A stretch of 64,000 nt of DNA from an uncultured Phycisphaeraceae bacterium (GCA_964543905.1 CAZIZO010000009.1:64524-128523); one strand, 5' to 3'. Positions 908 through 56,701 are shown, numbered from the stretch's first letter. Program-made: numbers and translations. The notes: a model not told the origin generated them from the letters alone.

Positions 908-3556
908 ATGCGTCGGAAAAACCCGGTTCGTCCCCTGACCCGCTTCCTCCGCGGCTGGGCTGTTCTTCTCGCCTCTCTCGCGGCCGCGGGCTCGGTCTTC
1001 GCGCAGCCCGCCTCCGTCACCCTCCCCGCTTCCAAGGACAACACCCTCTACGACGAGATCGACGGCCTCATCAGCAACGGCAAGGGCCAGCACTTCTTCG
1101 TCGGGACCAATAACTCCGGCAACATCCGCCGCGGCGTTATCGCCTTCGACACGTCCATCATTCCCCCGGGCTCGACCGTCACCGCCGCCACGCTCCGTTT
1201 GAGCATGTCTCGAACCAGAGCCGGCAACCAGCAGGTCACCCTCCACCGCCTGACCACCGATTGGGGTGAGGGCGATTCCCGAGGTTTCGGCGAAGAGGGC
1301 GCGGGCAACGCCTCGGAACCGGGCGACGCCACGTGGATCCACCGCTTCTTCAACAACGTCTTCTGGACCACGCGCGGAGGGGACTTCGTCGCGACCCCCA
1401 GCGCCACCACCACCGTCGGGGGCACCGGCTTCTACAACTGGTCCGGGGCGGGCGTCGTCGCCAACGTTCAGGCCTGGGTCAACGACCCGTCCTCCAACTT
1501 CGGCTGGCTCCTCAAGACCAACGAACTCTCCAACCCCACGGCCAAGCGGTTCGATACACGCCAGAACCTCCTGTCCAACCTTCAGCCGTCCCTCTCGGTG
1601 ACCTACACGCCCCCTCCGACTGCCGGTGCCTGCTGCCTCCTCACCGGCGCCTGCGTCGTCACCACGAGCGAACTCTGCGCCGCACGGGGCGGGTCGTTCC
1701 GCGGCGCCGGCACCACCTGCACCCCCAACCCCTGCGCCCAGCCTACGGGCGCGTGCTGCCTTCCCAGCGGCCTCTGCACCGTCGTGACGCAGCCCCAATG
1801 CCTCGCCCAGTCCGGCGTCTACCAGGGCGACAGCGTCCCGTGTTCGGGTGTCTCTTGCCCGATCATCCTCACGCCCTTTGTCGATCCCCTGCCCATCCCG
1901 GGCGTGATGCAACCCACCACCGGCACGCCGGGCGACACCGCCCACTACGACATCGCCATCCGCGAGGTCTGGCAGCGATTCCACCGCGACCTTCCCGTCT
2001 CCCGCGTCTGGGGCTATCAGGGCACCTACCCCGCGAACACCATCGAGGCACGACGCGGGCGACCCGTCACCGTGACCTGGACCAACGACATCCGCGACGA
2101 GTTGGGCGACATCCGCACCACCCACTTCCTCAACGTCGATACCTGCCTCCACGGGCCCGACATGTTCGGCGACGCCCCGCTCACCGTCACCCATCTCCAC
2201 GGCGGCGTGGTCTCGCCCGGGAGCGACGGCCCGCCCGAGGAGGGCTTCCCACCCGGCGAATCCTCCCCGCTCTACACCTACCCCAACACCCAGCGCGCCG
2301 GCACGCTCTGGTTCCACGACCACGCCCTCGGCCTCACCCGCCTGAACGTCTACATGGGCCTCGCCGGGTTCTATCTCCTCCGAGACGACCAGGAACTCGC
2401 GCTCAACCTCCCGCGTGGACAATACGAGATTCCTCTCGCCATCCAGGACCGCTCCTTCAAGCCCGACGGCTCGCTCTCCTACCCCGACATGTGGCATGAA
2501 CACTTCTTCGGCGAGTTCGTCGTCGTCAATGGCAAGGTCTGGCCCTTCCTGGAAGTCGACCAGGGCAAGTACCGCTTCCGCCTGCTCAACGGCAGCGGCA
2601 GCCGCGCGTACACCTTGTCCCTCTCGACGGGCGCCCCCTTCTGGCAGATCGGGACCGACCTGGGGTTGCTCCCCGCGCCGGTCGCCCGCTTTGAGATCAC
2701 GCTCCTCCCGGGCGAACGGGCCGACGTCATCATGGACTTCGCCTCGCTCCCCGCGGGGACGGAGGTCATCCTCAACAACTCCGCGCCGGCCCCGTACCCG
2801 GGCAACCCGGGGGTGGGGGTCATTCCCAACGTGATGAAGTTCATCGTGCGCGGGCAGGCCGGGTTCACCGCGCCGCTGCCCACGACGCTGGTGCCCGTGC
2901 CGCGCATCCCGGAGGCCCACGCCTCGCGCACGCGCGACTTCGTGCTCCAGATGACGCCCATGCAGACCAACTGCGGGCCGATGAACATGTGGACCATCAA
3001 CGGGCTGGGGTGGGACGACATCACCGAGTATCCGCGTGCGGATTCCATCGAAATCTGGCGCTGGATCAACCGCTCGGGATTCTCGCACCCCATGCACATG
3101 CACCTGGTCTCGTTCCAGGTCCTGGATCGCCAGGATTTCGCGATCGTCAACAACCAGATCGTGCCGGTGGGCCCTCGCATCCCGCCCCTGCCCAATGAGG
3201 CTGGGTGGAAGGACACCGTGCACGCCACGCCCAACCAGATCACCCGCGTCATCACGCGCTTCGAGGGTGGATTCACCGGCACGTATCCCTACCACTGCCA
3301 CATCCTGGAACACGAGGACAACGAGATGATGCGCCAGTTCACCGTCGTCTGCCCCGCCGACTACGACGACGGCAGCGGGCTGGGCGTCCCCGACGGGGGG
3401 ATCACGATCGACGACCTGCTGTACTACCTCGACGTCTATTCGCAGGGGGCGATCGCCGCCGACCTCGACGACGGGAGCGGCACGGGCCTGCCCGACGGCG
3501 GCGTCACGATCGACGACCTGCTGTACTACCTCGTGCGCTACGCGGGCGGGTGCTGA
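908..3556 (+). CDS. multicopper oxidase (CotA/bilirubin-oxidase-like) with N-terminal DNTLYD domain, two 6-Cys modules and C-terminal tandem GC-dockerin-like module
   Basis: GAGGTG precedes ATG908, 12 nt after the upstream stop. Signal peptide MRRKNPVRPLTRFLRGWAVLLASLAAAGSVFAQ. Cu-site motifs are present: THLHGG, WFHDHA, HPMHMHL, HCHILEHEDNEMM. C-terminus: CPADYDDGSGLGVPDGGITIDDLLYYLDVYSQGAIAADLDDGSGTGLPDGGVTIDDLLYYLVRYAGGC-stop. Confidence 0.9.
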   Translation: MRRKNPVRPLTRFLRGWAVLLASLAAAGSVFAQPASVTLPASKDNTLYDEIDGLISNGKGQHFFVGTNNSGNIRRGVIAFDTSIIPPGSTVTAATLRLSMSRTRAGNQQVTLHRLTTDWGEGDSRGFGEEGAGNASEPGDATWIHRFFNNVFWTTRGGDFVATPSATTTVGGTGFYNWSGAGVVANVQAWVNDPSSNFGWLLKTNELSNPTAKRFDTRQNLLSNLQPSLSVTYTPPPTAGACCLLTGACVVTTSELCAARGGSFRGAGTTCTPNPCAQPTGACCLPSGLCTVVTQPQCLAQSGVYQGDSVPCSGVSCPIILTPFVDPLPIPGVMQPTTGTPGDTAHYDIAIREVWQRFHRDLPVSRVWGYQGTYPANTIEARRGRPVTVTWTNDIRDELGDIRTTHFLNVDTCLHGPDMFGDAPLTVTHLHGGVVSPGSDGPPEEGFPPGESSPLYTYPNTQRAGTLWFHDHALGLTRLNVYMGLAGFYLLRDDQELALNLPRGQYEIPLAIQDRSFKPDGSLSYPDMWHEHFFGEFVVVNGKVWPFLEVDQGKYRFRLLNGSGSRAYTLSLSTGAPFWQIGTDLGLLPAPVARFEITLLPGERADVIMDFASLPAGTEVILNNSAPAPYPGNPGVGVIPNVMKFIVRGQAGFTAPLPTTLVPVPRIPEAHASRTRDFVLQMTPMQTNCGPMNMWTINGLGWDDITEYPRADSIEIWRWINRSGFSHPMHMHLVSFQVLDRQDFAIVNNQIVPVGPRIPPLPNEAGWKDTVHATPNQITRVITRFEGGFTGTYPYHCHILEHEDNEMMRQFTVVCPADYDDGSGLGVPDGGITIDDLLYYLDVYSQGAIAADLDDGSGTGLPDGGVTIDDLLYYLVRYAGGC

Positions 3557-3559
3557 GCC

Positions 3560-10493: not shown

Positions 10494-10560
10494 GCCGCGA
10501 GGCCCCCATTGCGAAGCCCGTCACGCCAACGAGGAAGCGGCACCGCCGCCAGCACTCGCC

Positions 10561-11688: not shown

Positions 11689-11833
11689 AAGGGGAAGATG
11701 GTAGGGGCGGCACCCCCATCGACGTCCGCGGGCAATGAACCATCGCGGGAGATCGCCCGCGCGCGGTCGGCCCCAAAAAAATGCCCCGGCTGGGAGCCGG
11801 GGCGTGCGTGACCTCGAGTCGAGCGGAAAAACC

Positions 11834-31862: not shown

Positions 31863-31870
31863 GACCACCG

Positions 31871-41749: not shown

Positions 41750-43462
41750 TCAGCAGCCCGCATCAAAGCGCGTCAGGTAGTACAACAGGTCGTCGATCGT
41801 GATCCCGCCGTCGGGGGTCGCGGTGGCGGTCCCGTCGTCGATGTCGGCCGTGATCTCGCCCGCCGCAAAGCGATCGAGATAGAACAGGAGGTCGTCGATC
41901 GTGATCCCGCCGTCGGGCGTGCCGGTGTTGGTGCCGTCGTCGAAGTCGGCGACGCAGCCGACGCGGGCGCTGAAGAGACCGTGGGTGTTGTCGGTGAACA
42001 CGAGTTTGAAGACGAGTTCACCACCCGAGGTCCACTGCCCCAGACCCGACTCGGTGGAATCGTGCTCAAAGACGATGGAGCGAATGATCTTGTCGCCCCC
42101 TTCCGGAACGTGGAAGGATTGCCCAGCGCGCGCGATGGCACGCACGGTCCCCGCCCGGTCGGCGGCAAAGAGTGCCATCGATCGCGCGGGCGTGACGTCC
42201 GCGCCGCGCAGATGGGCCGTGAACGCGATCCGACCCGAGCGGCTGGCGCGAGGCTCGCCCAAGATGTTGTAGACCGTGCCGGGGGCCTGGTCCGCGGCCT
42301 GGTCGCCCCGACGGACGATGCGGCGAGGCGAAACGGCTCCCGGATCGAGCACGAAGACGCCCGCGTTGTTCTCGCTTGTCACGTGGCCTGTGAGGTACGC
42401 GAGGAACGCGATGCCGCCACGGGGCATCAGCGAGAGCCGCCTCGCAAAGGACGCGAAGAAGACGCCGGGCATGTCGGGAACGGGGTCTTGGGCCCGCACG
42501 ACGGGCACGGGACCGGAGCCCGTGTCTATGCAAAGCACCTGATCAAACGGGCCACCGAACGAGGGAGCGACCCGTGCGAAGAAGGCGATGGTGCCCGCGT
42601 CGATGATGAGCGGCTCACCCGAGAGTTCGGCCCAGGTGCGCCCGGGGTCGTTGGGAACAGGTGCGCCGGTCAGGGCCACCTGGCTGAGCGTTCCGAAGCG
42701 ATCGGTGAACAGCCCCAAGGCGTAGTTCGTCGGAGCGGGGGCGGAACCCACGCCCGCCTCGGAGCGAAACACGACCTTGCCGAGATCGTTGAGCGAAGGC
42801 GAGCCGAGGGAGCGCAGGCGAGAATCGGGCGGAAGATTGGGCCCCGGCGCGGGCGTGGCGGTGCTGTAGACGGTCGAGCCCGGAACGATCTGGATCGCCG
42901 TTCCTGTGGACCACGCCGAGCGTCCGGATGGCGAGAGTGGGACCAACCCCGGCAACGTCTGCTGATTGATCGCGTCGCGTGCCACCAGCCCGAGCGACGT
43001 CGATTCGACAAACAGAGCCACGTTGGTCTGCTCGGTCGAAGGGGGCGTTCCCTCCACCACGACGCCCGAAAGGGCGATGTTCTTGGCCCAGTTGAAGGCG
43101 GCGGTGGGGATGGCACGGAGCGTGCCGTTGGGCATGCCGGGGGCCGGGTCGCCCTCGCGAGCGAGGAGGGCGAACGAGCCGCCGCGGTTGGACCACAGCG
43201 AACCGTCATTCGCGAACGTGACATCCGTGCCCGCGAGGCGAGCCCAGAAAAGAATGCGGCCGTCTTCGGCGATCCGCGGGTCGGAAACGGCTTCAAACGT
43301 CAGCGACGTGCCGGGCGCGGCCTGCCCAGAGAGGGCAATCGTGGTGTATCGGATTTGACGGGCAAGCGACGGCGTCGCAAGGCACGCGGCAAGCAGGGCG
43401 GGTGCCAGGAACCGGGCGAGGGGGATCGGACGACGTTGCGCAGGATGAACGGCCTGAGTCAT
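41750..43462 (-). CDS. secreted xxGxxAF-repeat protein with GC-dockerin-like C-terminus
   Basis: Signal peptide MTQAVHPAQRRPIPLARFLAPALLAACLATPSLA (alternative ATG at 43498). Repeated units AEDGRILFWARL, LNDLGKVVFRSE, IDAGTIAFFARV, PRGGIAFLAYL, SRSGRIAFTAHL. Ends CVADFDDGTNTGTPDGGITIDDLLFYLDRFAAGEITADIDDGTATATPDGGITIDDLLYYLTRFDAGC-stop. Confidence 0.85.
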   Translation of the reverse strand: MTQAVHPAQRRPIPLARFLAPALLAACLATPSLARQIRYTTIALSGQAAPGTSLTFEAVSDPRIAEDGRILFWARLAGTDVTFANDGSLWSNRGGSFALLAREGDPAPGMPNGTLRAIPTAAFNWAKNIALSGVVVEGTPPSTEQTNVALFVESTSLGLVARDAINQQTLPGLVPLSPSGRSAWSTGTAIQIVPGSTVYSTATPAPGPNLPPDSRLRSLGSPSLNDLGKVVFRSEAGVGSAPAPTNYALGLFTDRFGTLSQVALTGAPVPNDPGRTWAELSGEPLIIDAGTIAFFARVAPSFGGPFDQVLCIDTGSGPVPVVRAQDPVPDMPGVFFASFARRLSLMPRGGIAFLAYLTGHVTSENNAGVFVLDPGAVSPRRIVRRGDQAADQAPGTVYNILGEPRASRSGRIAFTAHLRGADVTPARSMALFAADRAGTVRAIARAGQSFHVPEGGDKIIRSIVFEHDSTESGLGQWTSGGELVFKLVFTDNTHGLFSARVGCVADFDDGTNTGTPDGGITIDDLLFYLDRFAAGEITADIDDGTATATPDGGITIDDLLYYLTRFDAGC

Positions 43463-43720: not shown

Positions 43721-44737
43721 ATGACGTGTACTCGATGCGGCTCCGCCGGTCGTCCTGCCTTTGCCCTCTTGGACCTGCTGACGCTGCTGGCGCTCGCGAC
43801 GATCGTCGTGGCCCTGCTGAGCGTCATGGGCACGCGCTCGCGCCATCTGGGACAACTGGGCGAGTCGATGGCGAATCTCAAGTTCTACGCGTCCGGGTCG
43901 CAGAGTTATGCGGCGGACTACGCCGATCGATTCTGGTCGTTCTCGTGGAGACCCAACAACGTGCCCGCGGACGCGGACCCCGATCTGAGGGCGTCCGCGC
44001 TCGGGAGTGACACGGCCGCCGCCGCCGCGCAGGCGATCCAGGTCCTGCGTCGCCGCGCCAATCGTCCGGACATCCAGATCGTGACCAACTGGATCCCGCA
44101 CATCTTGTACAGCCACCTGGTGCTGGCCGAACACATGGACGCGGAGTTGCCCGCGCGATTCGCTGTTTCGCCCGGGGATCGCGAGCGGCTCCGCTGGGCG
44201 AACGACCCCGCCGGATTTGATCGGGGGATCTACACGCCCAACCCGGGCACGGGAGAGACCGCCAAGCGATGGCCCTACTCCAGCAGTTACGAACTCGGCC
44301 CGGCGTTCTCCGGGCCGGATAGCGGCCAGAACGCGATTACGCAGTCGAATCAATCGAGTATCTATGTCGTTCCCTCCACGCCCAACGTGCTCGGCACGCG
44401 GCTGCTGAGCGAGGTCGTTCACCCCTCCCACAAAGCGATGGTTTGGGAGCAGTATTCTCGGTACCACGCGCCGCGGGCCGCGTTTTTCATGTACACCGAG
44501 GCACGGTGCCCCATCCTGTTCGTCGATGGCAGCGTTCGCCCAAGGCTGACCCAGCAGGGAAACCGCGGATGGAACCCGGCGCAGCCCACGTCCACCTTCC
44601 CCATCACCATGACCCACACGACCATGGCGTGGGAGAGCGGGGCGAGCCTCCCAACGACGACGGTGCAAGGCAACTACCGATACACCCGGCAAGGCCTCCG
44701 CGGGCGAGACTTCGACGGCGCCGAAGTCATGCCGTAA
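43721..44737 (+). CDS. pseudopilin-like protein (degenerate prepilin N-terminal helix, DUF1559-like C-terminus)
   Basis: Only the last ~339 codons of spurious track ORF 40952..44737. The N-terminus GRPAFALLDLLTLLALATIVVALLSV resembles the G-FTLIELLVV pilin helix. The C-terminal ..ILFVDGSVRP resembles the DUF1559 '...DGSV' end. ATG43697 is an alternative start. Confidence 0.55.
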   Translation: MTCTRCGSAGRPAFALLDLLTLLALATIVVALLSVMGTRSRHLGQLGESMANLKFYASGSQSYAADYADRFWSFSWRPNNVPADADPDLRASALGSDTAAAAAQAIQVLRRRANRPDIQIVTNWIPHILYSHLVLAEHMDAELPARFAVSPGDRERLRWANDPAGFDRGIYTPNPGTGETAKRWPYSSSYELGPAFSGPDSGQNAITQSNQSSIYVVPSTPNVLGTRLLSEVVHPSHKAMVWEQYSRYHAPRAAFFMYTEARCPILFVDGSVRPRLTQQGNRGWNPAQPTSTFPITMTHTTMAWESGASLPTTTVQGNYRYTRQGLRGRDFDGAEVMP

Positions 44738-44738
44738 C

Positions 44739-47114
44739 TCAGCAGCCGCCTTCGTACCGCTGGAGGAAGTACAGGAGGTCCTCGATCGTGACCCCGCCGT
44801 CGGGCGTGCCGGTGGCGCTCCCGTCGTCCAGGTCCGCCCGCGCCGTCCCAAGGTCGAAGATGAATAGGTAATAGAGCAGGTCTTCGATCGTGACCCCGCC
44901 ATCGGGAAGCCCGGCGCCGCCGCCATCGTCCAGATCGGCCGGGCAGGCGATCTCCACACGCGCCGCGAGGCTTCGGACGCTGCCACACGCGTTGGTCACC
45001 ACCACGTCGTACGACCCCGAATCACTCGCCATTGCCGGGTTGAGGATCAAGGTCATGGTGTGGGAGCCCGACACGTGCCCGCCATCGGTGAGCGGGATTC
45101 CATTTCGTCGCCAGACATAGGTCACGGGCTCCTCGGATCGCGCCGTGACGTGAAGTTCGCGGGCCGCTCCGACCAGGGAACGCCCCGAGGCCGGACTGCT
45201 CGTGATCTCCGGCGCTCCGGATCGAAGCGTCCAGACCTGGTCGAGGACCCGATCCGGGTCCGCACCGCCGATCATGATCGCCTGCCCGCGCAACTCATCG
45301 AACACAAACCCGGCGCCAAAGCGCGGCGTCGGGGGCAGGTCCGAGATGGGGCTCCAATCGTCGCCGACCAACTCCCACGCGTCGTCGATCGGCTGATTGT
45401 CGGCGATGAGGCCGCCGATCAGCACCAGACGATTCCGGGCGGAGTCAAAGACCAACCCATGCTCGTCACGCGGCGCGGGGACATCACCATCGAAATGCAT
45501 CGGCGTCCAGGCGTTTCCATCCCACGCCCACGCGTCGTTGGCATACCCGATCCCATTCGCAAAGCCACCGAAGAGCACGACCTGCCCGCGGATCGGATCA
45601 AAGGCCATGGCGGCGTGCACGCGCGGCGCGGGACGCAGCGGGGGTGACTTGAGGGTCCATGTTATCCCATTCCACACCCACGTCTCGTCGCTTCGTCCGC
45701 TGGCATCCTCACCCCCAAAGAGCACCGCCTGGCGTCGCACGGGGTCATAGGCCAACGCGGGCGCACGCCGGGGCGAGGGTCCCACCTGCGACGCCAGGGT
45801 CCATCGCGAGCCATCCCACTCCCAGGTCTCGCCACTCAATAATGAGTTATTCTGCCCACCGAAGTGGATGGCCACGTTCCGCGTGGAATCGAAGCACATC
45901 GCCGCCCGCTCCACGACGCCCGGACGCTCGCCCGGCGGGGCTGGTTTCTGCTCCCAGTTCGACCCGTTCCATTCCCAGGTGTCGTTGAGAAGCCCGCCCG
46001 TTCCTCGCCCCCCCACGACGATCGTGACCCCACGAGCGGAGTCGTACGCGACGCCCGGGTACACGCGATGCGGAGGCACCACGCGCGTCCCACGCGAGGT
46101 CCACTCGATCCCATCCCAAATCCATGTCCCGCTGAAGTGGGTATCCGGGGGCGTCATCGTGCGCCCCCCAAACATAAGTGTTTGCCGCGCACGCTCGTCG
46201 TACGCCGCGGACACGAACGCGCGAGCGCTCGGAATCTCCGCTGGAGGCCCCGGGATCCACTCGTTGCCGTTGTACTCCCACGTGTCCATCAACGGCGACG
46301 CGCCCACGCCTAGCCCGCCAAACAGGACCACGCGCCGCCGGGCCCGGTCATACGCCATGGCATGCGAGTGTCGCCCTGGGGGCGTGCCGGCCCCCGTCGC
46401 CCGAAGCGACCACGCCGCGCCGTCCCATTCCCAAGTATCACTCTGATACCCCGCGGACCCGAACAGCCCGCCAAAGAGCACGACGACCCCGCGCTGCGCG
46501 TCAAACGCCATGCCCGCGCCGGATCGCGCCGAGATCGGGCCGTTCCCGATGATTGTCCACTGACTCCCATCCCACGTCCGCGTCTCGTTGGAGGTCCCTC
46601 CTCCACTCGTCGATCCACCGAACACGACCACGTTGCGCCGCACTTCGTCGTACGCCATCGCCATGCGCCGCCGCGCGGGCGTCGAGAACGGCGTGAGGTC
46701 CACCCACGCTTGCCCGTCCCATTCCCACAGATCGGCGAGCGTCACCCCCATCGATGTCCGCCCCCCAAACAGGACGACGCGTCCGCGATCTCGATCAAAG
46801 GCCACCCCCGCCTCGCTCCGCGCCGGAGGTCGAACCAACCCTTGAGCCACCACCGACCAGCGCCCGTCGCTCCACTGCCACAGGTCCGGGTAGGTCCCAC
46901 GCCCGTTCGTTGCGTTCGCGCCCCCCAACATCAACACACGCGAACGTGCCGAGTCGTACGTCATCGCGTACGAGGCACGCGCATCGGGGCGAGGCGACTC
47001 GGCGTACCGTGGCTCGCACGTCGGCTGCGCGCTCGCAACTCCTCCCGCGAGCATCCAGAGCACCGCCGGAGCCCGAGCACCATTCCATCTGCGAATCGGC
47101 GGCGTGCTCAGCAT
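44739..47114 (-). CDS. secreted Kelch-repeat beta-propeller protein + Ig-like domain + GC-dockerin-like C-terminus
   Basis: GGAAAGGTGAAGGGG precedes ATG47114. Signal peptide MLSTPPIRRWNGARAPAVLWMLAGGVASAQ. About a dozen ~50-aa repeats (W-x-W-D/N-G-xx-W ... R-xx-H/A-x-M/A-x-Y/F-D-xx-R-xx-V-L-F-G-G). One Ig-like domain (YVWRRNGIPLTDGG..SGSYDVVVTNACGS). Ends CPADLDDGGGAGLPDGGVTIEDLLYYLFIFDLGTARADLDDGSATGTPDGGVTIEDLLYFLQRYEGGC-stop. Confidence 0.85.
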   Translation of the reverse strand: MLSTPPIRRWNGARAPAVLWMLAGGVASAQPTCEPRYAESPRPDARASYAMTYDSARSRVLMLGGANATNGRGTYPDLWQWSDGRWSVVAQGLVRPPARSEAGVAFDRDRGRVVLFGGRTSMGVTLADLWEWDGQAWVDLTPFSTPARRRMAMAYDEVRRNVVVFGGSTSGGGTSNETRTWDGSQWTIIGNGPISARSGAGMAFDAQRGVVVLFGGLFGSAGYQSDTWEWDGAAWSLRATGAGTPPGRHSHAMAYDRARRRVVLFGGLGVGASPLMDTWEYNGNEWIPGPPAEIPSARAFVSAAYDERARQTLMFGGRTMTPPDTHFSGTWIWDGIEWTSRGTRVVPPHRVYPGVAYDSARGVTIVVGGRGTGGLLNDTWEWNGSNWEQKPAPPGERPGVVERAAMCFDSTRNVAIHFGGQNNSLLSGETWEWDGSRWTLASQVGPSPRRAPALAYDPVRRQAVLFGGEDASGRSDETWVWNGITWTLKSPPLRPAPRVHAAMAFDPIRGQVVLFGGFANGIGYANDAWAWDGNAWTPMHFDGDVPAPRDEHGLVFDSARNRLVLIGGLIADNQPIDDAWELVGDDWSPISDLPPTPRFGAGFVFDELRGQAIMIGGADPDRVLDQVWTLRSGAPEITSSPASGRSLVGAARELHVTARSEEPVTYVWRRNGIPLTDGGHVSGSHTMTLILNPAMASDSGSYDVVVTNACGSVRSLAARVEIACPADLDDGGGAGLPDGGVTIEDLLYYLFIFDLGTARADLDDGSATGTPDGGVTIEDLLYFLQRYEGGC

Positions 47115-47334: not shown

Positions 47335-49725
47335 TTAACAACCCGCGTCGTACCGGACCAGGTAATACAGCAGGTCGTCGATCGTCACGCCGCCATCGGG
47401 AACGCCCGTGCTGCTGCCGTCGTCGATATCGGCACCGGCGTTGCCCGCACGCCAGAGTTGGATGTAGTAGAGCAAGTCGTCGATCGTGACACCGCCGTCG
47501 GGCGTTCCGGTGCCCGTGCCATCGTCGTAATCGGCGACGCACCCGATCACGAGTTGGGCCGCGGTGCTGGGCGATGAACCGCACGAGTTGGTCGCGACGC
47601 AGCGATACATCCCGGCCTCCGCCGCGGTGATGTTCGACACGGTCAGCGTGTTGGTCAGCACGCCCGAATATGGACCGCCGTCGGAGATGTTGACCCCGTC
47701 CTTCTGCCACTGGTACGCGATCGGCGTGACCCCGGCGCAGAAGGCGCTGAACGTCACCGACTGCCCCGCTCCCGTCGATCGTCCGACGGGCTGCGTCTGG
47801 AAGGACGGCGCACCGGTCTCGAGCCAACGCCCGTCGGTGATGTATCGGGTCGGGTCCAAGCCACCGAAGGCGAAGGTCACGCCTCGCGTCTCCTCGAAGA
47901 CCTGCCCGTGCCCCTGCCGCGCACCAAGATTCGGCGTGGCGTTCAACTGGAGCCAGTTGGCGCCGTCAAACTCCCACGTCTCGCTGCTCCGGCCCGCGAG
48001 GGTAAACCCGCCCGTCATCACGACCTTGCCGCGTGCCGCATCGAACGACATCGCGGCCTCATCGCGAGCCGACGGGCCCGAGACCGACAGTTGGGTCCAC
48101 ACGGTCCCGTTCCAGACCCACGTGTCGCTCGTCAAGCCCACCACGTTGTCCGACCCGCCGAACAGCACGACGTTGCCGCGGACGGCGTCATACGTCATGG
48201 CCGCGTGGACGCGCGGCGTCGGCCCCGTCGTCGCCTTCAAGGTCCAGGCCGTCCCGTTCCACTCCCAGGTGTCCTGTACAAACCCGACGCCGCCCGCGCC
48301 CTCGTCGCCGCCGAAGAGGACGACGACGTCGCGTGCCGAGTCGTAGGCCATCACGTGCGCCCGACGTGGCGACGGGCCGGGGCCACCCATCATGGACCAG
48401 TTCGACCCGTCAAAGAGCCACGTCTCCCCGCTGAAGAACGCACCGTTCTGACCGCCGAACAGGACCACCTTGCCCGAGCCTCGGTGGAAGGCGGCGGCGG
48501 AACGCTCACGCGCCGCGGGCGACGTGGCGGGCGAGAGGCTCGTCCACGTCTCGCCGTTGAAGACCCAGGTATCACCCAGCAGCCCGCTGCCGTTCTTCCC
48601 GCCGAAGAGCACGGTATTGCCCCGGGTCGAGTCGTGCGCCATGACGGGATAGATTCGCGCGGAAGGTGTGGAGCGATCGTTGCGGAGCGACCACTCGTTG
48701 CCATCGAACCAGCGCAGATCGGAGAAGAACTGCACGCCCGAGCCATCGATCGTGACGCCGCCAAAGACGAGCGACACGCCGCGCACGAGGTCATACGACA
48801 TGTTGTGGAAGCCGCGCCCCACCAACCCCGGGGCGGTCAACTGCACCCATTGCGTGCCCGTCCATTCCCAGGTGTCATCGAAGAAGGTGGTGAAATCGAA
48901 CCCGCCGGACATGTAGACCGTGTTGGCGATGCGGTCGTACGTCATGCCGTGGACAAATCGGGCGGGGGGATCGTTGGGCCCACCCCCGGCGGAAACTTGC
49001 GTCCAGTTGGTGCCGTTCCAGGTCCAGGTGTCGTTCGTCACGGTACTGCCATCGGAGCCGCCAAAGAGCACGATGGTATTGCTCCTCGCGTCGAAGGTCA
49101 TCGCGGGGTTCCGGCGTGCCGACGGCGCGTTGGCCGGGGTGAGCAGGGTCCACGTCGTCCCGTCCCATGCCCAGGTTTCATTCAGATAGGCGCCCGTCGC
49201 GTCGCGTCCACCAAAGAGAATCGTCTGGCGACGAACCGGGTCATACGCCAGGCCATACAGGCGACGAGGCGAAGGCGACGTCGCGGGCGTCCGTTGGGCC
49301 CAGTTGGTGCCGTCGAACTCCCACGTATCGCCAAAGACCGTGCCGTCATAGCCGCCAAACATCACCATCATGCGACGATCGGAATCGAAGGAGAGGCACA
49401 TGTCGTCGCGGTGCGAGGGCGACGGGCCCGTCAGAGCGACTTGTGTCCAGCGCGTGCTGTCGAACTCCCAGGTGTCGCCGTACATCCGCCCCAGCGTGCC
49501 GTCCACGCCCCCGAAGAGGACATACTTCCCGCGCACGTGGTCATAGGCGCCGCCGAACGAGCCGCGCCCCACGGGACGCTTGGGGGTCTCCGCCCAACCC
49601 GGCGCGGGACACTGGGCCAGCACGGACGTGGGCAAAGCCATCACGCCCGCGCACGCCACGAGAGCGGCAGCAGGGGTGACACGAAGGGCGGCGCGAGCCC
49701 GGACCGAACGGATTTTGAACGACAT
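47335..49725 (-). CDS. secreted Kelch-repeat beta-propeller protein + Ig-like domain + GC-dockerin-like C-terminus (paralog of 44739..47114)
   Basis: GAGGAG lies 7 nt before ATG49725. Signal peptide MSFKIRSVRARAALRVTPAAALVACAGVMALPTSVLAQ. Same repeat signature as its neighbour. Ig-like YQWQKDGVNISDGG..AGMYRCVATNSCGS. Ends CVADYDDGTGTGTPDGGVTIDDLLYYIQLWRAGNAGADIDDGSSTGVPDGGVTIDDLLYYLVRYDAGC-stop. Confidence 0.85.
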   Translation of the reverse strand: MSFKIRSVRARAALRVTPAAALVACAGVMALPTSVLAQCPAPGWAETPKRPVGRGSFGGAYDHVRGKYVLFGGVDGTLGRMYGDTWEFDSTRWTQVALTGPSPSHRDDMCLSFDSDRRMMVMFGGYDGTVFGDTWEFDGTNWAQRTPATSPSPRRLYGLAYDPVRRQTILFGGRDATGAYLNETWAWDGTTWTLLTPANAPSARRNPAMTFDARSNTIVLFGGSDGSTVTNDTWTWNGTNWTQVSAGGGPNDPPARFVHGMTYDRIANTVYMSGGFDFTTFFDDTWEWTGTQWVQLTAPGLVGRGFHNMSYDLVRGVSLVFGGVTIDGSGVQFFSDLRWFDGNEWSLRNDRSTPSARIYPVMAHDSTRGNTVLFGGKNGSGLLGDTWVFNGETWTSLSPATSPAARERSAAAFHRGSGKVVLFGGQNGAFFSGETWLFDGSNWSMMGGPGPSPRRAHVMAYDSARDVVVLFGGDEGAGGVGFVQDTWEWNGTAWTLKATTGPTPRVHAAMTYDAVRGNVVLFGGSDNVVGLTSDTWVWNGTVWTQLSVSGPSARDEAAMSFDAARGKVVMTGGFTLAGRSSETWEFDGANWLQLNATPNLGARQGHGQVFEETRGVTFAFGGLDPTRYITDGRWLETGAPSFQTQPVGRSTGAGQSVTFSAFCAGVTPIAYQWQKDGVNISDGGPYSGVLTNTLTVSNITAAEAGMYRCVATNSCGSSPSTAAQLVIGCVADYDDGTGTGTPDGGVTIDDLLYYIQLWRAGNAGADIDDGSSTGVPDGGVTIDDLLYYLVRYDAGC

Positions 49726-50027: not shown

Positions 50028-53000
50028 TTAGCAGCCCAGTTCAAACCGGACCAGGAAGTAGAGAAGATCGTCGATCGTCACGCCGCCGTCAACCGTCCCG
50101 GTCCCGCTCCCGTCGTCCACGTCGGCGCCCGGATCGCCATTCTCAAAGATGGCGAGGTAGTACAAGAGATCGTCGATCGTCGTGCCGCCGTCGGGCGTGC
50201 CCGTGCCGCTCCCGTCGTCCACGTCGGTGATGCAGCCGGTGTTGACCGTCAGGGCGACGGCATCGCTCGTCACGCTGCCGCAGTCGTTCGTGACCACAAC
50301 GTCGTACGACCCCGCATCACCCGCGCCGGCGGGGCTGATGGTCAAGGTGTTGGTGTCCGCACCCGAGATGCTCCCGCCATTCGTGAGATTCACCGTGTCC
50401 TTCCGCCAAACGTACGAGATCGAGGGCGACCCGGAGACCGCGACGCTGAAGACGGCCGACGCGCCCGCGTTCACCGTCTGCGCCGTCGGTGGCGTCGTGA
50501 TGGACGGGCCGCTGTTCACCACGAGCGCGACCTGGTTGCTCGTGACGCTCCCGCACGTGTTGGTGACGACGCAGTCGTAGTTCCCAGCGTCCGCGAGGGT
50601 GATGTTGCTCAGGCCCAGCGACGCGCCGGTGGCGCCCAGGATGTTGGAGCCGTTGAGCCGCCATTGATAGGTGGGGGCGGGGATGCCCGAGGCGACGACG
50701 AACAACGTGTACTCATCACCAAGGCATCGAGACGCCCCAACGGGGTGCGTGGTGATGGAGGGTGCCGTGTTGAGGGTCAGGGTGGCGGCGGTGCTCGTGG
50801 AACTCCCGCACGAGTTCGTGACGACGCAGTCATAGTTCCCCACATCACCCGCCCCGATGGAGGGAATGTTGAAGGTGGCGCTCGTCGCTCCCCCGATGTT
50901 GACGGCGTTCTTGCGCCACTGGAACGTCGGGGTCGGCGTGCCCGAGGCGGCCACGCTGAACGACGCCGACGCCCCTTCGCAGCGCGAGAGGCTGACCGGA
51001 TTCGAGGTGACCGAGGGCGGGACGTTCACCGTCAGCGTGGCGACATTGCTCGGCACGCTGCCGCACGAGTTCGTCACGACGCAGTCGTAGTTGCCCTGAT
51101 CGCCGGACGAGACCGACGCGATCGAGTAGGTCGCATTGGTGGCGCCGGGGATGTCGATCCCGTTCTTCCGCCACTGGAGCGTGGGCGTGGGGGAGCCCGA
51201 GAAGGCGATGGTGAAGGAGGCCGACGCGCCGGTGCAGCGCGTGAGCGAGGACGGTTGCGTGGTCACCCCGGGGCCCGTGCTGACGCCCAGCGTGGCGAAG
51301 TTGCTCGTGAGATTGCCGCAGGCATTGGTGACGACGCAGGTGTAGTTGCCGGCATCGCCCGCAACAACACCCGTGATCGTCAGGTTGGGCGTGGTGGCGC
51401 CCGAGATGGAGCCGCCATCCACGAGGTTGGTAAACCCGCGACGCCATTGGTACGTCGGCGAGCCCGTCGCCACCACCGAGAAGGAGGCGTTCCCGCCCAC
51501 GCAGGCCGACGTGCTCACCGGGTTCTGGGTGAACCCCGGCGCCGCATTGACGGTGAGCGTCGCGTTGTTGGAGGTGACGCTCCCGCAGGTATTGGTGATG
51601 ACACAGTTGTAGTCGGACGCGGCGTCGCCCGCGACGACGCCCGTGATGGTGAGCGTCGGGGAGGTGGCGCCCGAGATGGTCCCGCCGTTGGTCAGGTTCG
51701 TCGTCCCGCGACGCCACTGGAACGAGGGCGTCGTGCCGGACGCGGCGACCGTGAGCGAGGCGTTGCCGCCCTCGCACGCGGACGTGCTCGATGGCTGGGT
51801 TGTGATCGAGGGCGCGGTGCAGCCCCCGGCCGTCGCCGAGAGCGTGAGGGTGTAGATCTGCGTCTGCGTCGGCGTGTTGTTGTCCGAGACGCGGATGAAG
51901 TAGTTCCCGATCGTGGACAACGCGAAGTTGGTGATCGACTCGGCGCCCCCGAGGCCGTTGGCGTTCGCGGTGGCGAGCACCGTCGTGCCGTTGGACGCGT
52001 AGAGCGTGAGCACCAGGTCGGCCTGATTCAGCGCGTCCACGTTGTTCCCGCTCGCGCACGAGCCGTCCGCGTTCTGGGGGCTGCTGTCATAGGTCGAGCC
52101 CAAGGGGGTGACGGTCGCGGTCAGGTTGATCGTGCCCGCCGTGGTGAAGCGGAACCAATCCTGGTCCCCATCGACGCTGATCGCCGTGAGCGCGCCGTTG
52201 CTGATGGCCGGCGCGGGCACGGTGCTCGGGTTGAGGCTGCCCCCCGCCAGGAGGTTCCCCAAGATCGTGGCCGTGGCGCTCGTGTTGTTGGATTCGTAGG
52301 CGTCGCCGTAGTAGCGCTGCCCCGCGCGCAGGTCGTCCTGCTGCGGGCCATCGAACGAGGTGTTGATGAAGGGCTCCATCAACTGGTTCGAGTTGCTCGA
52401 ACAGACATGCTGGAATCCCAGCCCGTGCCCGTGCTCGTGCATGACCACATCGCGGAGGAAGCGATAGGAGTTGGTGCTCGATTGCCAGTTCTCCGACATG
52501 TCGAGAACCATGTCGCCCGTCGAGGGGAAGTAGTTGTACGCGAGCACGCCGTTGACCCCGTCGAGCGTCCGCCCGCCGATGCGGCAGTCGCCTCGCGCCC
52601 CCGCGGCCCCGGCGCTGGTCAAGAATGTCGCGCCGTCGTCCCAGTCGTTCCCGCCCACCGTGACGCGGGTGTACGACGTGCCCGTCAACGCCGCCCAACG
52701 ATCAAAGCACGCCTGGAACTGGGCGATCCACGTCGCTCGCCCACCCAGCGCGGCGAACTTCGAGTCCATCTGGGCGAAGAGATTGCTCGGGGCCGCCGCG
52801 CTCGTCAAGCCGGGTTCGGCGGGGATCGACGTCCCGTCCGGGATAAAACTCCACGTCAGCGCCCGAGGGGTGCCCACCGTGCCCGACCATCGCGTCCCCA
52901 GGTTGTAGCCCGGATCGAGGAACTGCAGCATCGCGCGATTGACGGCCGCCATGACCTCGGGCTTGGGCGGCTCCGTCTCCGAGAAGCACATCATCGGCGG

Positions 53001-53315
53001 GTCGTACAGGAATCCGGGCCGAAACTCGACCTGATCCATGAGCCGATTCATCACCGCCACGACCTCCGGCGCCGCGAACGGCCCGGTCATGTCCCATGCC
53101 TGTTCAAAACTCCCTGCGTAGACCGCGCGGAGCAGCATCTGCTCCACCTGGATCGACCCCCGCAACGATGACCTCTCGGAATCCGTGGTCTCGACCGCAC
53201 CCGCCACCGACGAAAGCCCAACCGCGGGCAGGATCGCCGCGGCGACGAGAGACAAACGCCCACCCAGCCGGCGAGCAAACGAGCGGCGTGACGACGACAA
53301 GTTCTTGGTGTGCAT
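50028..53315 (-). CDS. secreted metzincin (matrixin-like) zinc protease + PPC domain + six Ig-like domains + GC-dockerin-like C-terminus
   Basis: Signal peptide MHTKNLSSSRRSFARRLGGRLSLVAAAILPAVGLSSVAGA. Zinc site VVMHEHGHGLGFQHV (HExxHxxGxxH). PPC-like region YGDAYESNNT..DQDWFRF..YTLTLS. Six ~85-92-aa Ig-like repeats (..C..ASF.V.ASG.P.P.YQWRKN......A...L.I......D.G.Y.CVVTN.CGS.TS..A.L.V). Ends CITDVDDGSGTGTPDGGTTIDDLLYYLAIFENGDPGADVDDGSGTGTVDGGVTIDDLLYFLVRFELGC-stop. Confidence 0.9.
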   Translation of the reverse strand: MHTKNLSSSRRSFARRLGGRLSLVAAAILPAVGLSSVAGAVETTDSERSSLRGSIQVEQMLLRAVYAGSFEQAWDMTGPFAAPEVVAVMNRLMDQVEFRPGFLYDPPMMCFSETEPPKPEVMAAVNRAMLQFLDPGYNLGTRWSGTVGTPRALTWSFIPDGTSIPAEPGLTSAAAPSNLFAQMDSKFAALGGRATWIAQFQACFDRWAALTGTSYTRVTVGGNDWDDGATFLTSAGAAGARGDCRIGGRTLDGVNGVLAYNYFPSTGDMVLDMSENWQSSTNSYRFLRDVVMHEHGHGLGFQHVCSSNSNQLMEPFINTSFDGPQQDDLRAGQRYYGDAYESNNTSATATILGNLLAGGSLNPSTVPAPAISNGALTAISVDGDQDWFRFTTAGTINLTATVTPLGSTYDSSPQNADGSCASGNNVDALNQADLVLTLYASNGTTVLATANANGLGGAESITNFALSTIGNYFIRVSDNNTPTQTQIYTLTLSATAGGCTAPSITTQPSSTSACEGGNASLTVAASGTTPSFQWRRGTTNLTNGGTISGATSPTLTITGVVAGDAASDYNCVITNTCGSVTSNNATLTVNAAPGFTQNPVSTSACVGGNASFSVVATGSPTYQWRRGFTNLVDGGSISGATTPNLTITGVVAGDAGNYTCVVTNACGNLTSNFATLGVSTGPGVTTQPSSLTRCTGASASFTIAFSGSPTPTLQWRKNGIDIPGATNATYSIASVSSGDQGNYDCVVTNSCGSVPSNVATLTVNVPPSVTSNPVSLSRCEGASASFSVAASGTPTPTFQWRKNAVNIGGATSATFNIPSIGAGDVGNYDCVVTNSCGSSTSTAATLTLNTAPSITTHPVGASRCLGDEYTLFVVASGIPAPTYQWRLNGSNILGATGASLGLSNITLADAGNYDCVVTNTCGSVTSNQVALVVNSGPSITTPPTAQTVNAGASAVFSVAVSGSPSISYVWRKDTVNLTNGGSISGADTNTLTISPAGAGDAGSYDVVVTNDCGSVTSDAVALTVNTGCITDVDDGSGTGTPDGGTTIDDLLYYLAIFENGDPGADVDDGSGTGTVDGGVTIDDLLYFLVRFELGC
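50235..51825 (-). repeat. six tandem ~255-275-nt coding repeats (Ig-like domains)
   Basis: The periodicity is visible in the protein. It also shows in the antisense track ORFs, which repeat ..TLPQ/HxLVTTQS about every 260 nt (50857, 51136, 51346, 51643). Boundaries are approximate. Confidence 0.8.
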
Positions 53316-53635: not shown

Positions 53636-56600
53636 TTAGCAGCCGAGTTCGAACCGTTGGAGGTAGTAGAGGAGGTCGTCGATGGTGACGCCGCCATCGG
53701 GCGTGCCCGTGGCCGAGCCATCGTCCACGTCGGCGGCGAGGTCGCCGTTCTCGAAGATGTAGAGGTAGTAGAGCAGGTCGTCGATGGTCACGCCGCCGTC
53801 GGGGATGCCGGTGAAGGACCCGTCGTCCACGTCCGCGACGCATGGACCAACGTATCCGACGCGGAAGGACTCCACGGTGTCCCACACACACGTCGGATCG
53901 CTGTTGCAGGTCCCCTCGACGATCAGGCGGTAGCGGTGGTCCGGGTCCGGAGCGGTGTAGTGGAGGTTGATCATCTGCGTGGTGGCCTCACCCGCCGAGA
54001 GCGAGATCGAGAACTGGACCGGGTCGCCCGGAGGAAGGCCGTTGAGGCTGATCACCTCGGTGTCGGGCTCGTCGTCCGGGGTGAGCACGCGAACGCGGAT
54101 GTTGCGAGTCTCGGCGGAGGGGCCCGTGTTCGTGATCGTGATCGGGAGGTCCAGCCCGGGGCTGGGCACCGCGATGAGCGTGCTCAGGTTCGTCGGAATC
54201 TGGTTGCACAAGTTCGTGTTATCGACGACCTTGCCCTGTGCCGAGAGTTGATCGCCCGTGACGTTATTCTGCACGGCGAAGGTGTAGCACCCGGTCAGCC
54301 CGACGCCAAAGAGCCCCGCCGGGCGGGTGATGACCACGGGGAACGTGAAGCAACCGCCCGGGTTGATCACGGGGGTGATGCCCGTGGAGGGTGAGAAGGT
54401 GGTGGGCCCCACGACGGAGCAGCCCGGGCCGACACCGTCGCCCATCAGGTTCCACGAGTACGTCGCGGGCGATGTGGTGTAGTTGCAGATGGTGAGATTC
54501 GCGGTGACCGTGGTCTGCCCCGGGACACAGAACGACGAGATGGGAGCGGAAACGGCGTTCTTGCACTTCCCCGAAACGCCCGCGGCATAGACGCGCTGGA
54601 TTTCAGCGGTGGAGAGGGCGGCCCGGTGGAACTCAACCTCGTCGATCCCGCCGGAGAAGAAGGAGGAAGCCGGATTGGAGGAGGCGCCCACGCGGAAGGG
54701 CGAACCCGGCGTGCTGTGGTTGCCCGCGCCGGCGCCGACGGTGATCGTCGGGGAGGCCACGCCGTTGACGTACATCGTCAGGGTCGGCACCGGCGTGGGA
54801 CGATAGACGGTGGCGACGTGGACCCAGGTGTTGGCGGGCACAGCGAGGCCCGAGTTGTAGTTGGCGAAGGTGACGCCGTTGCCCAGTTGCGTCAAGAGCG
54901 TGCCGTTCGAGAGGAAGAACAGGTAGCCGAGTGAGGGGATGATGTTGGAGGCGGCGCGCTTGTCGGCGATGACACGCACGCCGTTCGCGCCGGTGTGGTT
55001 GATCCACGCGTCGATGGTGAAGGCGCCGGCGCCGGGGTTGATCCCGGCATAGTCGGGAACCTGGACGTAGTCGTTGACCCCGTCGAAGGTCCGGGAGTTA
55101 TCGACCTGCACGCCCAAGGTGTGCGCGACGCCGTTGAGGTCGGTGCCGGGGAAGGCTGGGGCGCGGATGTTGGCGGCGGTGATCCCCGCGGGCTCATCAA
55201 AGGGGAGCCACAAGGTCATGCGGCTCGGCGCGGAGGTGCAGCCGCAGGTGTGGGTGCAGATGTCGCGCATGTTCGGGTCACGCGGAGTGAAGATGACATC
55301 CAACGCCACATACGGGCTTTGATCCGCTCGCACCATCTGGATCGGATTGAACGGGTCTCGCGCCGCTTGCTGGGGGATGACGCGCTCGTCGCACACCTGG
55401 ACCGCCGGATTGGCGCTCACGGTCGAGAGGAGCGTGTTGGTCTTGCTGGTCCAGAAATCGCGCCCGAGTCCAAAGTGGTTGCGGGCATCGGCGGCGACGA
55501 ACACCCCCCCGTCGGCGGCGGGAATGGCTTCGTGGGCCAGTTCGGTCGTCGTCGGGAAGTTGGAGTTGAAGAAGCGGACTTCATTGGTAATGACGCCCGA
55601 GTTGCTCACCCGCATCAGCGCGCCGTTCGTTGGACCGCCCGCGCTGGAGGCCTCCCGTCCCGCGAAGACAAAGCCCCCAAAGGGATGGGCACGGGCGGAC
55701 TGGCTCTCCCAGAACGTCGGGGTGGTCAGCATCCAGAGGGGAACGCCGTTGGCGTCGGTGCGCACGACGTGCGAGCCGCGGTTGTTGCTCTGGAGATCGC
55801 GCCAAGGACCGGTGAAGACATAGCCGCCCGGGAAGGTCATGCCGTTCGCGCTGACGGGCGGGGCCAGGTCCATCCCTTCCCCCAGGAACTGCTCGCTCAA
55901 GGGTTGCGTCTGCAGGTAGACGTTGGACCAGCGGAGCGGGCCGCAGGCGTTGGACGTTTGGGTCCGCAGGGCGAGAAGTTCGATCGGGCCCACGTCACCA
56001 CGGCGGGTCCATCCGACGACGGTGAACGTGCCGTCGGGATTCTGACGAACATCGTTGAAACTGGTGTACGCCGATGGCCCCCATCGAGCGTCGGTCCAGA
56101 CGCACCCCGACACCTGATTTCCGTTCGCATCCGTGGTGATCAACACCCCCCCGCGGATCCCGCCCTGAGGCGGATTGCTGCGCCGGCCGATGAGCACCCA
56201 TCCCCCTTGTGCGCCGGCGAGTTCGCGCGTCACGCTCTGCCCGTCCGTCGAGAAACCATCACCCTGATACACGTGTGCCCACATGACCGCGCCCGAGGCG
56301 GCGTTGACCTTCATCAGGAAGATCTCGTGCCCGGGGATGGGGCTGGGGCGCATCTCCCCCGCCACGACGTAGTTGCCGTCCTTCGCAACACGAACGCTGT
56401 GGGCCTCGAGTTGCCCGTTCGGGAACGGGTTTGAGTAGTGACGAACCCATTGGCGATTACCGCACTTGTCGAGTTTCTCGAGCATGATGTCGCGGGCGGT
56501 GACGGCATTGAGGGCGACACCGGCGGCGATCGTCCCGCCGTCGGGCGTGCGCTCGGTGCTCGTGGCCCATTCGTCGTTCTGCGTAAAGGTGAGTTCCTGA

Positions 56601-56701
56601 TACGAGAGAGGGGGCGCGGCCGACGCCGGAAGGCCGGCAAGGGAGACCAGCAGGCCGGCGCCGAACAGGCCGGCGGCATGTGCAACACGACGAGTACGCA
56701 T
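53636..56701 (-). CDS. secreted large protein: N-terminal propeller-like region, LamG/concanavalin-like domain, beta-sandwich region, GC-dockerin-like C-terminus
   Basis: GGGAGGA precedes ATG56701. Signal peptide MRTRRVAHAAGLFGAGLLVSLAGLPASAAP. LamG-like segment FDGVNDYVQVPDY..GAFTIDAWI..VIADKR..GYLFFLSNGTL..WVHVATVY..LTMYVNGV..GGIDEVEFH. Ends CVADVDDGSFTGIPDGGVTIDDLLYYLYIFENGDLAADVDDGSATGTPDGGVTIDDLLYYLQRFELGC-stop. Confidence 0.85.
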   Translation of the reverse strand: MRTRRVAHAAGLFGAGLLVSLAGLPASAAPPLSYQELTFTQNDEWATSTERTPDGGTIAAGVALNAVTARDIMLEKLDKCGNRQWVRHYSNPFPNGQLEAHSVRVAKDGNYVVAGEMRPSPIPGHEIFLMKVNAASGAVMWAHVYQGDGFSTDGQSVTRELAGAQGGWVLIGRRSNPPQGGIRGGVLITTDANGNQVSGCVWTDARWGPSAYTSFNDVRQNPDGTFTVVGWTRRGDVGPIELLALRTQTSNACGPLRWSNVYLQTQPLSEQFLGEGMDLAPPVSANGMTFPGGYVFTGPWRDLQSNNRGSHVVRTDANGVPLWMLTTPTFWESQSARAHPFGGFVFAGREASSAGGPTNGALMRVSNSGVITNEVRFFNSNFPTTTELAHEAIPAADGGVFVAADARNHFGLGRDFWTSKTNTLLSTVSANPAVQVCDERVIPQQAARDPFNPIQMVRADQSPYVALDVIFTPRDPNMRDICTHTCGCTSAPSRMTLWLPFDEPAGITAANIRAPAFPGTDLNGVAHTLGVQVDNSRTFDGVNDYVQVPDYAGINPGAGAFTIDAWINHTGANGVRVIADKRAASNIIPSLGYLFFLSNGTLLTQLGNGVTFANYNSGLAVPANTWVHVATVYRPTPVPTLTMYVNGVASPTITVGAGAGNHSTPGSPFRVGASSNPASSFFSGGIDEVEFHRAALSTAEIQRVYAAGVSGKCKNAVSAPISSFCVPGQTTVTANLTICNYTTSPATYSWNLMGDGVGPGCSVVGPTTFSPSTGITPVINPGGCFTFPVVITRPAGLFGVGLTGCYTFAVQNNVTGDQLSAQGKVVDNTNLCNQIPTNLSTLIAVPSPGLDLPITITNTGPSAETRNIRVRVLTPDDEPDTEVISLNGLPPGDPVQFSISLSAGEATTQMINLHYTAPDPDHRYRLIVEGTCNSDPTCVWDTVESFRVGYVGPCVADVDDGSFTGIPDGGVTIDDLLYYLYIFENGDLAADVDDGSATGTPDGGVTIDDLLYYLQRFELGC

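Follow-up and report, generated by a model that had tools for sequence, protein, structure and literature searches.

Eight exported proteins in 64 kb of an uncultured Phycisphaeraceae genome share the C-terminal GC-type dockerin module

Within 64,000 nucleotides from an uncultured Phycisphaeraceae bacterium (GCA_964543905.1 CAZIZO010000009.1:64524-128523; the whole of this stretch is the window), exactly eight open reading frames (ORFs) end, on translation, in a shared C-terminal module that runs from a first Cys to a terminal Gly-Cys-stop, and the proteins they encode all match NCBIfam NF041540 (dockerin_GC, 'GC-type dockerin domain-anchored protein'). Their scores against this 67-position profile, 49.0-72.9 bits (E 6e-13 to 2e-20, n=8), lie far over its curated cutoff of 29 bits and cover profile positions 1-67, which excludes chance; membership of the eight modules in this family is nearly certain. 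All three features tested for NF041540 are present: the profile match, the GC-ending C terminus and the Phycisphaerae lineage. The module is therefore an already catalogued, curated and named family, and the novelty of finding it here is low; we re-identify a known family. The family's name was not in use in the literature that we searched, and the GC-type dockerin appears to be known solely as an annotation model.

An initial annotation, made from the sequence alone, had placed eight such modules in the window, seven of 68 residues from Cys to Cys and one, at 15757-15942, of 61, all ending in G-C-stop; the translations agree, and the RefSeq name that it gave proved to be that of NF041540, which matches all eight. 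A six-frame search of the window with a hidden Markov model (HMM) built from the eight modules returned the same eight copies (E 1e-27 to 3e-38) and no further copy at E<1, so none in the window was overlooked. G+C content is 64-69% throughout, and the frame bias of G+C at third codon positions (GC3) favours the eight ORFs being genes. The eight proteins are as follows.

ORF1, 908..3556, + strand: signal peptide, DNRLRE, Cys-rich region, multicopper oxidase, module 3350-3556; NF041540 71.6 bits.
ORF2, 13576..15942, + strand: DUF1028, FG-GAP repeats, 61-residue module 15757-15942; NF041540 49 bits.
ORF3, 24030..25334, + strand: signal peptide, HAF-like repeat passenger, module 25128-25334.
ORF4, 41750..43462, - strand: probable start Met51; DUF7453 / NxxGxxAF 'choice-of-anchor' repeats, module 41750-41956.
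ORF5, 44739..47114, - strand: probable start Met33; Kelch propellers, Ig I-set domain, module 44739-44945.
ORF6, 47335..49725, - strand: start Met47; Kelch propellers, Ig I-set domain, module 47335-47541.
ORF7, 50028..53315, - strand: probable start Met49; Peptidase_M10 (matrixin-type), six Ig domains, module 50028-50234.
ORF8, 53636..56701, - strand: start Met52; Laminin_G_3 and unassigned regions, module 53636-53842.

Passenger domains were assigned with Pfam and NCBIfam, and they match those named in the initial annotation (oxidase, DUF1028 with FG-GAP, Kelch, metzincin with Ig, LamG). Its description of the eight cargos as unrelated goes a little too far: ORF5 and ORF6 are paralogues (~42-44% identity), and ORF5, ORF6 and ORF7 have in common an Ig domain directly before the module. 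No linker separates the last strand of the passenger from the module. By inspection, the N terminus of each of the eight, read from an internal ATG, looks like the signal peptide that had been ascribed to it: basic at first, then hydrophobic, with an AxA-like site at its end; independent public gene calls agree with two of these starts, P0155 being ORF6 from Met47 and P0129 being ORF8 from Met52, and the probable start of ORF2 is Met59 or Met62 of the 13402 frame.

Some details of these proteins stand beside the module. The n-region of ORF7 (53315-53170, - strand) reads SRRSFARRL and is twin-arginine-like, and the hydrophobic region of ORF4 (43462-43380, - strand) contains L-A-A-C, a possible lipobox. 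The Ig I-set repeats of ORF7 (50235-51700, - strand) and the last Ig of ORF5 and ORF6 have a third conserved Cys, which sits in an N-x-C-G-S motif six residues past the canonical second Cys; in the Ig domain before the module of ORF5 and ORF7 this third Cys is the sole one kept. Residues ~242-317 of ORF1 (1630-1860, + strand), between DNRLRE and the multicopper oxidase, hold two copies of a CC-x5-C-x7-C-x13-C-x4-C pattern without a family match.

Conservation, computed over 253 unique 68-residue modules, is extreme: C1, D4, D15, D22, G33, D38, D40, G42, D49, D56, G67 and C68 are invariant, which upholds both the invariant first and last Cys of the initial annotation and, in its essentials, its consensus. 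Many further positions exceed 90% across unrelated cargos, and the helix positions Y25/Y26, Y59/F60, R63 and F64 are also conserved. Each repeat has six conserved acidic residues. Loop 1 of ORF2, DVDANGGVTIDD (D-V-D-A-N-G-G-V-T-I-D-D), lacks an insert and has the canonical length of 12 residues, with a ligand pattern at positions 1, 3, 5 and 12 that is exactly that of the EF-hand type; the other loops equal this one plus a conserved Gly-rich insert of seven residues (D-x-D-[D-G-S-G-T-G-T/P]-D-G-G-V-T-I-D-D), which separates the ligands at positions 3 and 5. The presence or absence of the loop-1 insert accounts for the module lengths of 68 and 61 residues, and the inserts in the putative calcium loops are the reason why the canonical dockerin HMM misses the module.

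We rejected recent gene conversion as the source of this likeness: the codon identity of 0.62 at conserved residues compares with an expected 0.50, and the window's copies are 67-76% identical to one another in DNA. The likeness of the modules is upheld by selection on the protein. Given this, the 76% identity between repeat 1 and repeat 2 and the positions conserved above 90% across unrelated cargos point to a common receptor.

The C-terminal position is as strict outside the window. We sampled related genomes through 67 loci (1.1 Mb, from a species-representative genome scan) that come from four Phycisphaeraceae/Phycisphaerales metagenome-assembled genomes (MAGs), almost all of them from two uncultured Phycisphaeraceae MAGs and two from Phycisphaerales. 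This sample contains 140 full-length copies: all start with Cys, 139 run directly into a stop codon and 139 end in GC, so the frequent internal or non-GC copies that the initial annotation had named as evidence to the contrary are absent from it. The module is also terminal in 114 of 115 database copies. Among 1.84 billion representative proteins, an exhaustive search gave 2,142 clusters at E<=1e-3 (1,355 at E<=1e-10), and in 150 of the 150 listed out of those 2,142 the protein's last residue is also that of the module; it was this search that showed full-length architectures, a word-indexed homologue search with the module having given just fragments shorter than 120 residues. The sampled regions alone contain at least 83 distinct module proteins in one MAG and at least 50 in another, with up to five per 20 kb. 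Housekeeping genes of the window are ~70-75% identical in DNA to these MAG loci, and a neighbouring gene has its named homologues in Phycisphaerales. In exact sequence look-ups, ORF3 occurred in two Logan assemblies only, SRR33014876 and SRR8109493, and ORF1, P0129 and P0155 gave no match.

Binding folds prevail among the cargos. A Pfam census of 87 full-length representatives counted Ig I-set 12 times, Kelch 5 times, and DUF7453, the lamin-tail domain (LTD) and GBD_T9SS_assoc 4 times each; C-type lectin and LamG also occur, and the few enzymes are multicopper oxidase, M10 and M12 peptidases, GSDH and beta-lactamase.

The same kinds of cargo also occur with another C-terminal tail, and one such protein is encoded directly upstream of ORF1.

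128..895, + strand: DNRLRE protein with signal peptide, DNRLRE and a PEP-CTERM-like tail (VPTPG-hydrophobic-RRARGK).

This protein, which the initial annotation overlooked, ends in VPTPGVVALGLACAGGVSVRRARGKVRL, and its DNRLRE domain shares 48% identity (E=7e-69) with the one at the N terminus of ORF1: the two genes are tandem paralogues with different C-terminal tags, a second tag system coexists with the GC module, and an exosortase-type system elsewhere in the genome is implied. The sampled MAG loci encode 17 proteins with a tail of the form [VI]-P-[AT]-P-G, a hydrophobic stretch and RRRR; the Pfam PEP-CTERM model aligned over its full length at the extreme C terminus in 8 of 10 tested, yet below threshold. 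A HAF-repeat protein of one locus (L049) is collinear with ORF3 up to the junction, where a PEP-CTERM-like tail replaces the GC module, and LTD is found with either tail. This interchange on the same cargo types is the strongest evidence that localisation or anchoring depends on the module and that it has no part in catalysis; the curated 'choice-of-anchor' repeats of ORF4 were also counted for an anchor role. Together with the strict C-terminal position and the many unrelated cargos, it bears out the initial annotation's view of a C-terminal sorting or anchoring tag.

The module itself is not a PEP-CTERM signal, an identity that we rejected since it is acidic, lacks a hydrophobic helix and has GC at its end. 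Small proteins with PEP-CTERM-like tails, mostly of 210-290 residues, are encoded at L053:5042-7292(-), L013:6420-8265(+) and by 12 other ORFs of the MAG loci; some lie in tandem arrays beside GC-module genes, and most of their passengers have no Pfam match.

AlphaFold2 models of the ORF8 and ORF2 modules (pLDDT 97.6 and 96.0) have the layout of a dockerin: loop-helix, short linker helix, loop-helix, with neither entering helices nor strands, the main helices being predicted at residues 20-31 and 54-65 of the ORF8 module and 13-24 and 47-58 of the ORF2 module. The top Foldseek hit of the ORF2 module is the Ruminococcus flavefaciens dockerin 5LXV_B (TM 0.61/0.58, RMSD 2.4 A over 61 columns, 33% identity, probability 0.85), and it also matches the Clostridium perfringens NagH dockerin 2OZN_B (TM 0.53); the standard 68-residue module gives a looser match, to the type II dockerin 5K39_B (TM 0.51, RMSD 6.1 A). 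We had predicted that the insert-less ORF2 module would superpose better on dockerins, and it does. A profile of 90 modules run against all PDB sequences found dockerins only, at marginal significance, with the X-dockerins 4WI0_B (E=0.006) and 4U3S_B (E=0.01). Dozens of calmodulin/centrin-type matches to the ORF2 module reached a TM of only ~0.3 with RMSD 9-14 A, and we rejected a calmodulin-type EF-hand pair on this ground and for the lack of entering helices; Pfam EF-hand models responded to ORF2 loop 1 alone (E 0.04-0.13). Identity with the type IX secretion C-terminal domain was likewise rejected, the predicted fold having helices and loops and no strands.

In every intact dockerin structure that they examined, Slutzki et al. 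(PMC3821032) reported an 'intramolecular clasp' between the N and C termini, and a clasp mutation in ScaADoc lowered stability and cohesin binding. The spacing of the GC module argues for a covalent form of this clasp, in which Cys1 and Cys68 would form a ring-closing disulfide. The Gly before the last Cys is not peculiar to the terminus: it is the counterpart of the helix cap at the end of repeat 1, G33 and G67 both being 100% conserved. Repeat 1 is joined to repeat 2 by three residues (34-36), followed by a conserved A-D; through a putative Cys68-Cys1 bond, repeat 2 would be joined to repeat 1 by three residues too (C68, C1 and V2), followed by A3-D4. The joints being equal, such a bond would close the module into a pseudo-twofold ring. 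ORF3 has no Cys apart from the module's two, and 23 of 267 near-complete members likewise have none outside the module, which fits a Cys1-Cys68 disulfide; the parity of passenger Cys (137 even, 130 odd) is uninformative on disulfide partners.

We propose that the cargo proteins would be exported via the Sec pathway by their N-terminal signal peptides and that, outside the cytoplasm, each repeat would bind calcium in an EF-hand-type loop, D1-x-D3-[7-residue insert]-D5-G-G-V-T-I-D-D12. A Cys1-Cys68 disulfide would then close the module into its ring, and the folded module would serve as a common plug that tethers dozens of different proteins, both binders (adhesins of Ig/Kelch/lectin type) and enzymes (peptidases, an oxidase), by docking on a single conserved receptor of the cell envelope, parallel to the PEP-CTERM-like route of other proteins. 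Towards this mechanism as a whole, an exported cargo with a calcium-folded, disulfide-closed dockerin plug and one conserved envelope receptor, we lean slightly.

Several results weigh against it. No isolated module matched Pfam Dockerin_1 (PF00404) at E<=10, and hhalign against the type I dockerins CelS and CelD was not significant (probability 0.2-0.3; the CelS query was checked and is 100% identical to 2MTE/1DAQ), aligning just DGGVTIDDL with DGRVNSTDL; we therefore rejected canonical dockerin membership by sequence, and the transfer of cohesin binding by homology is weak. The Foldseek E-values are poor given the short query, the best being 0.58. On these models the module is a dockerin by structure and barely so by sequence, its kinship being structural and remote, and the initial annotation's likening of the duplicated loop plus helix to dockerins stands in the AlphaFold2 models and the superposition on 5LXV_B, but not in the Pfam and type I profile comparisons. 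A scan of the window's ~45 genes at the level of Pfam/NCBIfam agrees with the earlier inspection by eye in finding no cohesin, sortase or exosortase; a cohesin is also absent from the 25 most frequent families of the 87 module-bearing representatives and from ten small PEP-CTERM-like neighbours, which we had considered as cohesin candidates and rejected, as they comprise LTD, PPC, DUF4397 or no domain. With regard to the disulfide, ~5% of the 253 modules (for example that of P0121) have a third Cys at position 14, in the loop-1 insert, and thus an odd number, and the single-repeat variants keep both Cys though a bond of that geometry within one molecule is unlikely in them.

A bolder form of the proposal we regard as doubtful, if conceivable: that the module, disulfide-locked and calcium-dependent, is the plug of a large, hitherto undescribed, cohesin-independent display system of Phycisphaerales. 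More than 50 proteins per genome would carry it, its receptor would be of a new kind (a protein or an envelope glycan), and single repeats would reach the same fold as disulfide-linked dimers. Two-repeat modules dominate; single-repeat forms (~33 residues from Cys to Cys) are a minority of roughly 5-10%, and protein P0121 has a three-repeat module. Single-repeat modules that end in GC-stop are found in the following ORFs.

L023:3913-6345, + strand: single-repeat GC module.
L023:9530-12130, + strand: single-repeat GC module.
L037:4409-6385, + strand: single-repeat GC module.
L038:1346-2380, - strand: single-repeat GC module.
L040:1418-2953, + strand: single-repeat GC module.

Another reading takes the module for a secretion signal and not an anchor, to be read by an outer-membrane translocation apparatus, such as the type II secretion/pseudopilin machinery, which is expanded in this group, and then perhaps removed, as is the C-terminal domain of type IX secretion cargo. 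Its strict C-terminal position, its many unrelated cargos and its interchange with another sorting signal would suit this reading, as would the presence of GBD_T9SS_assoc, a T9SS-cargo-associated domain (T9SS, type IX secretion system), in 4 of 87 members; a pseudopilin-like gene also lies within the window's five-gene GC cluster, between ORF4 and ORF5, and prepilin-type genes recur in related loci.

43721..44737, + strand: pseudopilin-like gene of 338 residues with a prepilin N-terminus, of the N_methyl/DUF1559-type family.

The GC3 gene call missed this gene, and its product has no Pfam/NCBIfam match of its own; its homologues, which in Phycisphaerales go by the name 'type II secretion system protein', have DUF1559 and the N-methylation motif of prepilins. 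However, the pseudopilin-like family is generically abundant in these genomes (160 homologues at E<=0.001), so adjacency to the GC cluster means little, and the embedded gene has no counterpart in the 1.1 Mb of related loci. Moreover, the predicted fold is one known for docking proteins to each other, and no translocon or peptidase gene is linked. We consider a secretion signal unlikely. Nor does the embedded gene encode a receptor, a candidacy that we rejected in view of its family; it is probably unrelated to the tag. We also looked for a receptor among recurrent neighbours by clustering 795 ORFs from the 67 loci and the window, and rejected this source too, as the clusters were generic families only: ABC exporter-like and protein kinase-like (both judged by eye) and prepilin-type.

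The free C-terminal Cys could instead be the functional group, linked covalently to a receptor or to the envelope (by an intermolecular disulfide, a thioester or a lipid), with the fold doing nothing but presenting it. The terminal Cys is invariant and never followed by anything, and its retention with Cys1 in single-repeat variants, where an intramolecular clasp is geometrically improbable, would make sense on this account. But the N-terminal Cys is just as invariant, the three-residue symmetry fits an internal bond, proteins exist with these two Cys alone and no candidate transferase is linked to the genes; we are aware of no case in which a dockerin fold carries such chemistry, and we think it very unlikely.

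Highly improbable, too, is a cross-linked coat without a separate receptor, in which the modules would bind each other, their F-hand repeats pairing between proteins and possibly being locked by disulfides. EF-hand-type motifs normally come in pairs, so a lone repeat probably needs a partner repeat for stability, and single repeats may perhaps be forced to pair between molecules. The existence of one-, two- and three-repeat versions would accord with such pairing, and the likeness of the two repeats makes swapping plausible. Group-2 single-repeat dockerins of R. flavefaciens offer a parallel, being naturally truncated yet functional, with two units binding one cohesin at once (PMC12270676). 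However, AlphaFold2 confidently gives the two-repeat module as a closed monomer, and the single-repeat forms are few.

Least probable of all is a module with no partner, acting as a calcium-triggered folding or stabilising cap in the manner of RTX repeats, which keep proteins unfolded until export, or as a shield of the C terminus from proteolysis: the conserved acidic residues imply calcium binding and no receptor was found in the window, in the frequent cargo families or in the ten PEP-CTERM-like neighbours, but the conserved helix residues exceed what fold and loops would be expected to need, interchange with a PEP-CTERM-like sorting tail indicates a role in localisation, and dozens of unrelated folds are unlikely all to need the same chaperone-like cap.

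The other genes of the window are of housekeeping and envelope/glycan type: GH57, LptF/G, ABC ATPase, isocitrate dehydrogenase, MgtE, P-type ATPase, sigma-54 and RecR, together with a PMT_2 glycosyltransferase, epimerase, GT4-GT2 fusion, DEAD helicase, RuvX, EF-P, shikimate kinase, FGGY kinase and ROK protein. There are no tRNA or Rfam features in the window. A glycan-related run at 27867-36256 (+ strand) holds the PMT_2-type glycosyltransferase, the NAD-dependent epimerase/dehydratase, the GT4-GT2 fusion of 790 residues and a protein of 417 residues without a family match. At 9552-11865 (- strand), an Mrr-type restriction endonuclease protein (Mrr_cat and NA-iREase1) adjoins an AAA_17 ATPase, and the two may form a small defence-type pair amid the housekeeping genes.

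In a poorly studied planctomycete lineage, a very large part of the secreted proteins bears this tag, and more than 2,000 sequence clusters are public. In scale this is comparable to the largest cellulosomes; polysaccharide-degrading enzymes, however, are few among the cargo, which mostly resembles adhesins (Ig, Kelch, lectin, lamin-tail). The identity of the receptor would explain the surface organisation of these bacteria and could also give a small disulfide-stabilised docking pair for protein engineering.

From NF041540 as curated, the eight window proteins do not differ: they are members by profile, C-terminal position and terminal Gly-Cys. A dockerin-based system has been proposed for Phycisphaerae before, in the 'planctosome' hypothesis for Nemodlikiaceae (Andrei et al. 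2019, PMC6461901), by which cohesins and dockerins would assemble non-cellulolytic enzymes, for the most part peptidases, at the cell surface. The dockerins of that still hypothetical assembly were found by standard CAZy/dbCAN models and number 0-6 per genome among the rows listed there, whereas the GC type fails the canonical Pfam model and reaches at least 50-83 per genome.

Classical dockerins (PF00404; CelS 1DAQ, 5LXV_B, 2OZN_B and the X-dockerins 4WI0/5K39) resemble the GC module in their ~60-70 residues, their tandem calcium loop plus helix, their C-terminal place on diverse secreted cargos and their high internal twofold symmetry. The GC module differs from them in that it has 7-residue loop inserts, an invariant Cys pair for the non-covalent clasp and no linker before the module, fails the Pfam model and the type I profile comparison, and is without a known cohesin partner. 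Its one-repeat variants, known from sequence, parallel the group-2 dockerins of R. flavefaciens, but keep both bracketing Cys.

Two further systems share its architecture without sharing its fold. Like the GC module, the T9SS C-terminal domain (Por_Secre_tail) is a folded C-terminal domain on many unrelated secreted proteins of one lineage. It is a beta-sandwich of about 80-100 residues that is cleaved and swapped for a lipopolysaccharide anchor, in contrast to the predicted helical fold of the GC module. The PEP-CTERM/exosortase system takes the place of the GC module in cargo families that the two share (DNRLRE, HAF-like, LTD) in the same genomes; its signal is a short motif with a transmembrane helix and a basic cluster, processed by exosortase, whereas the GC module would be a soluble, folded, acidic domain of calcium loops.

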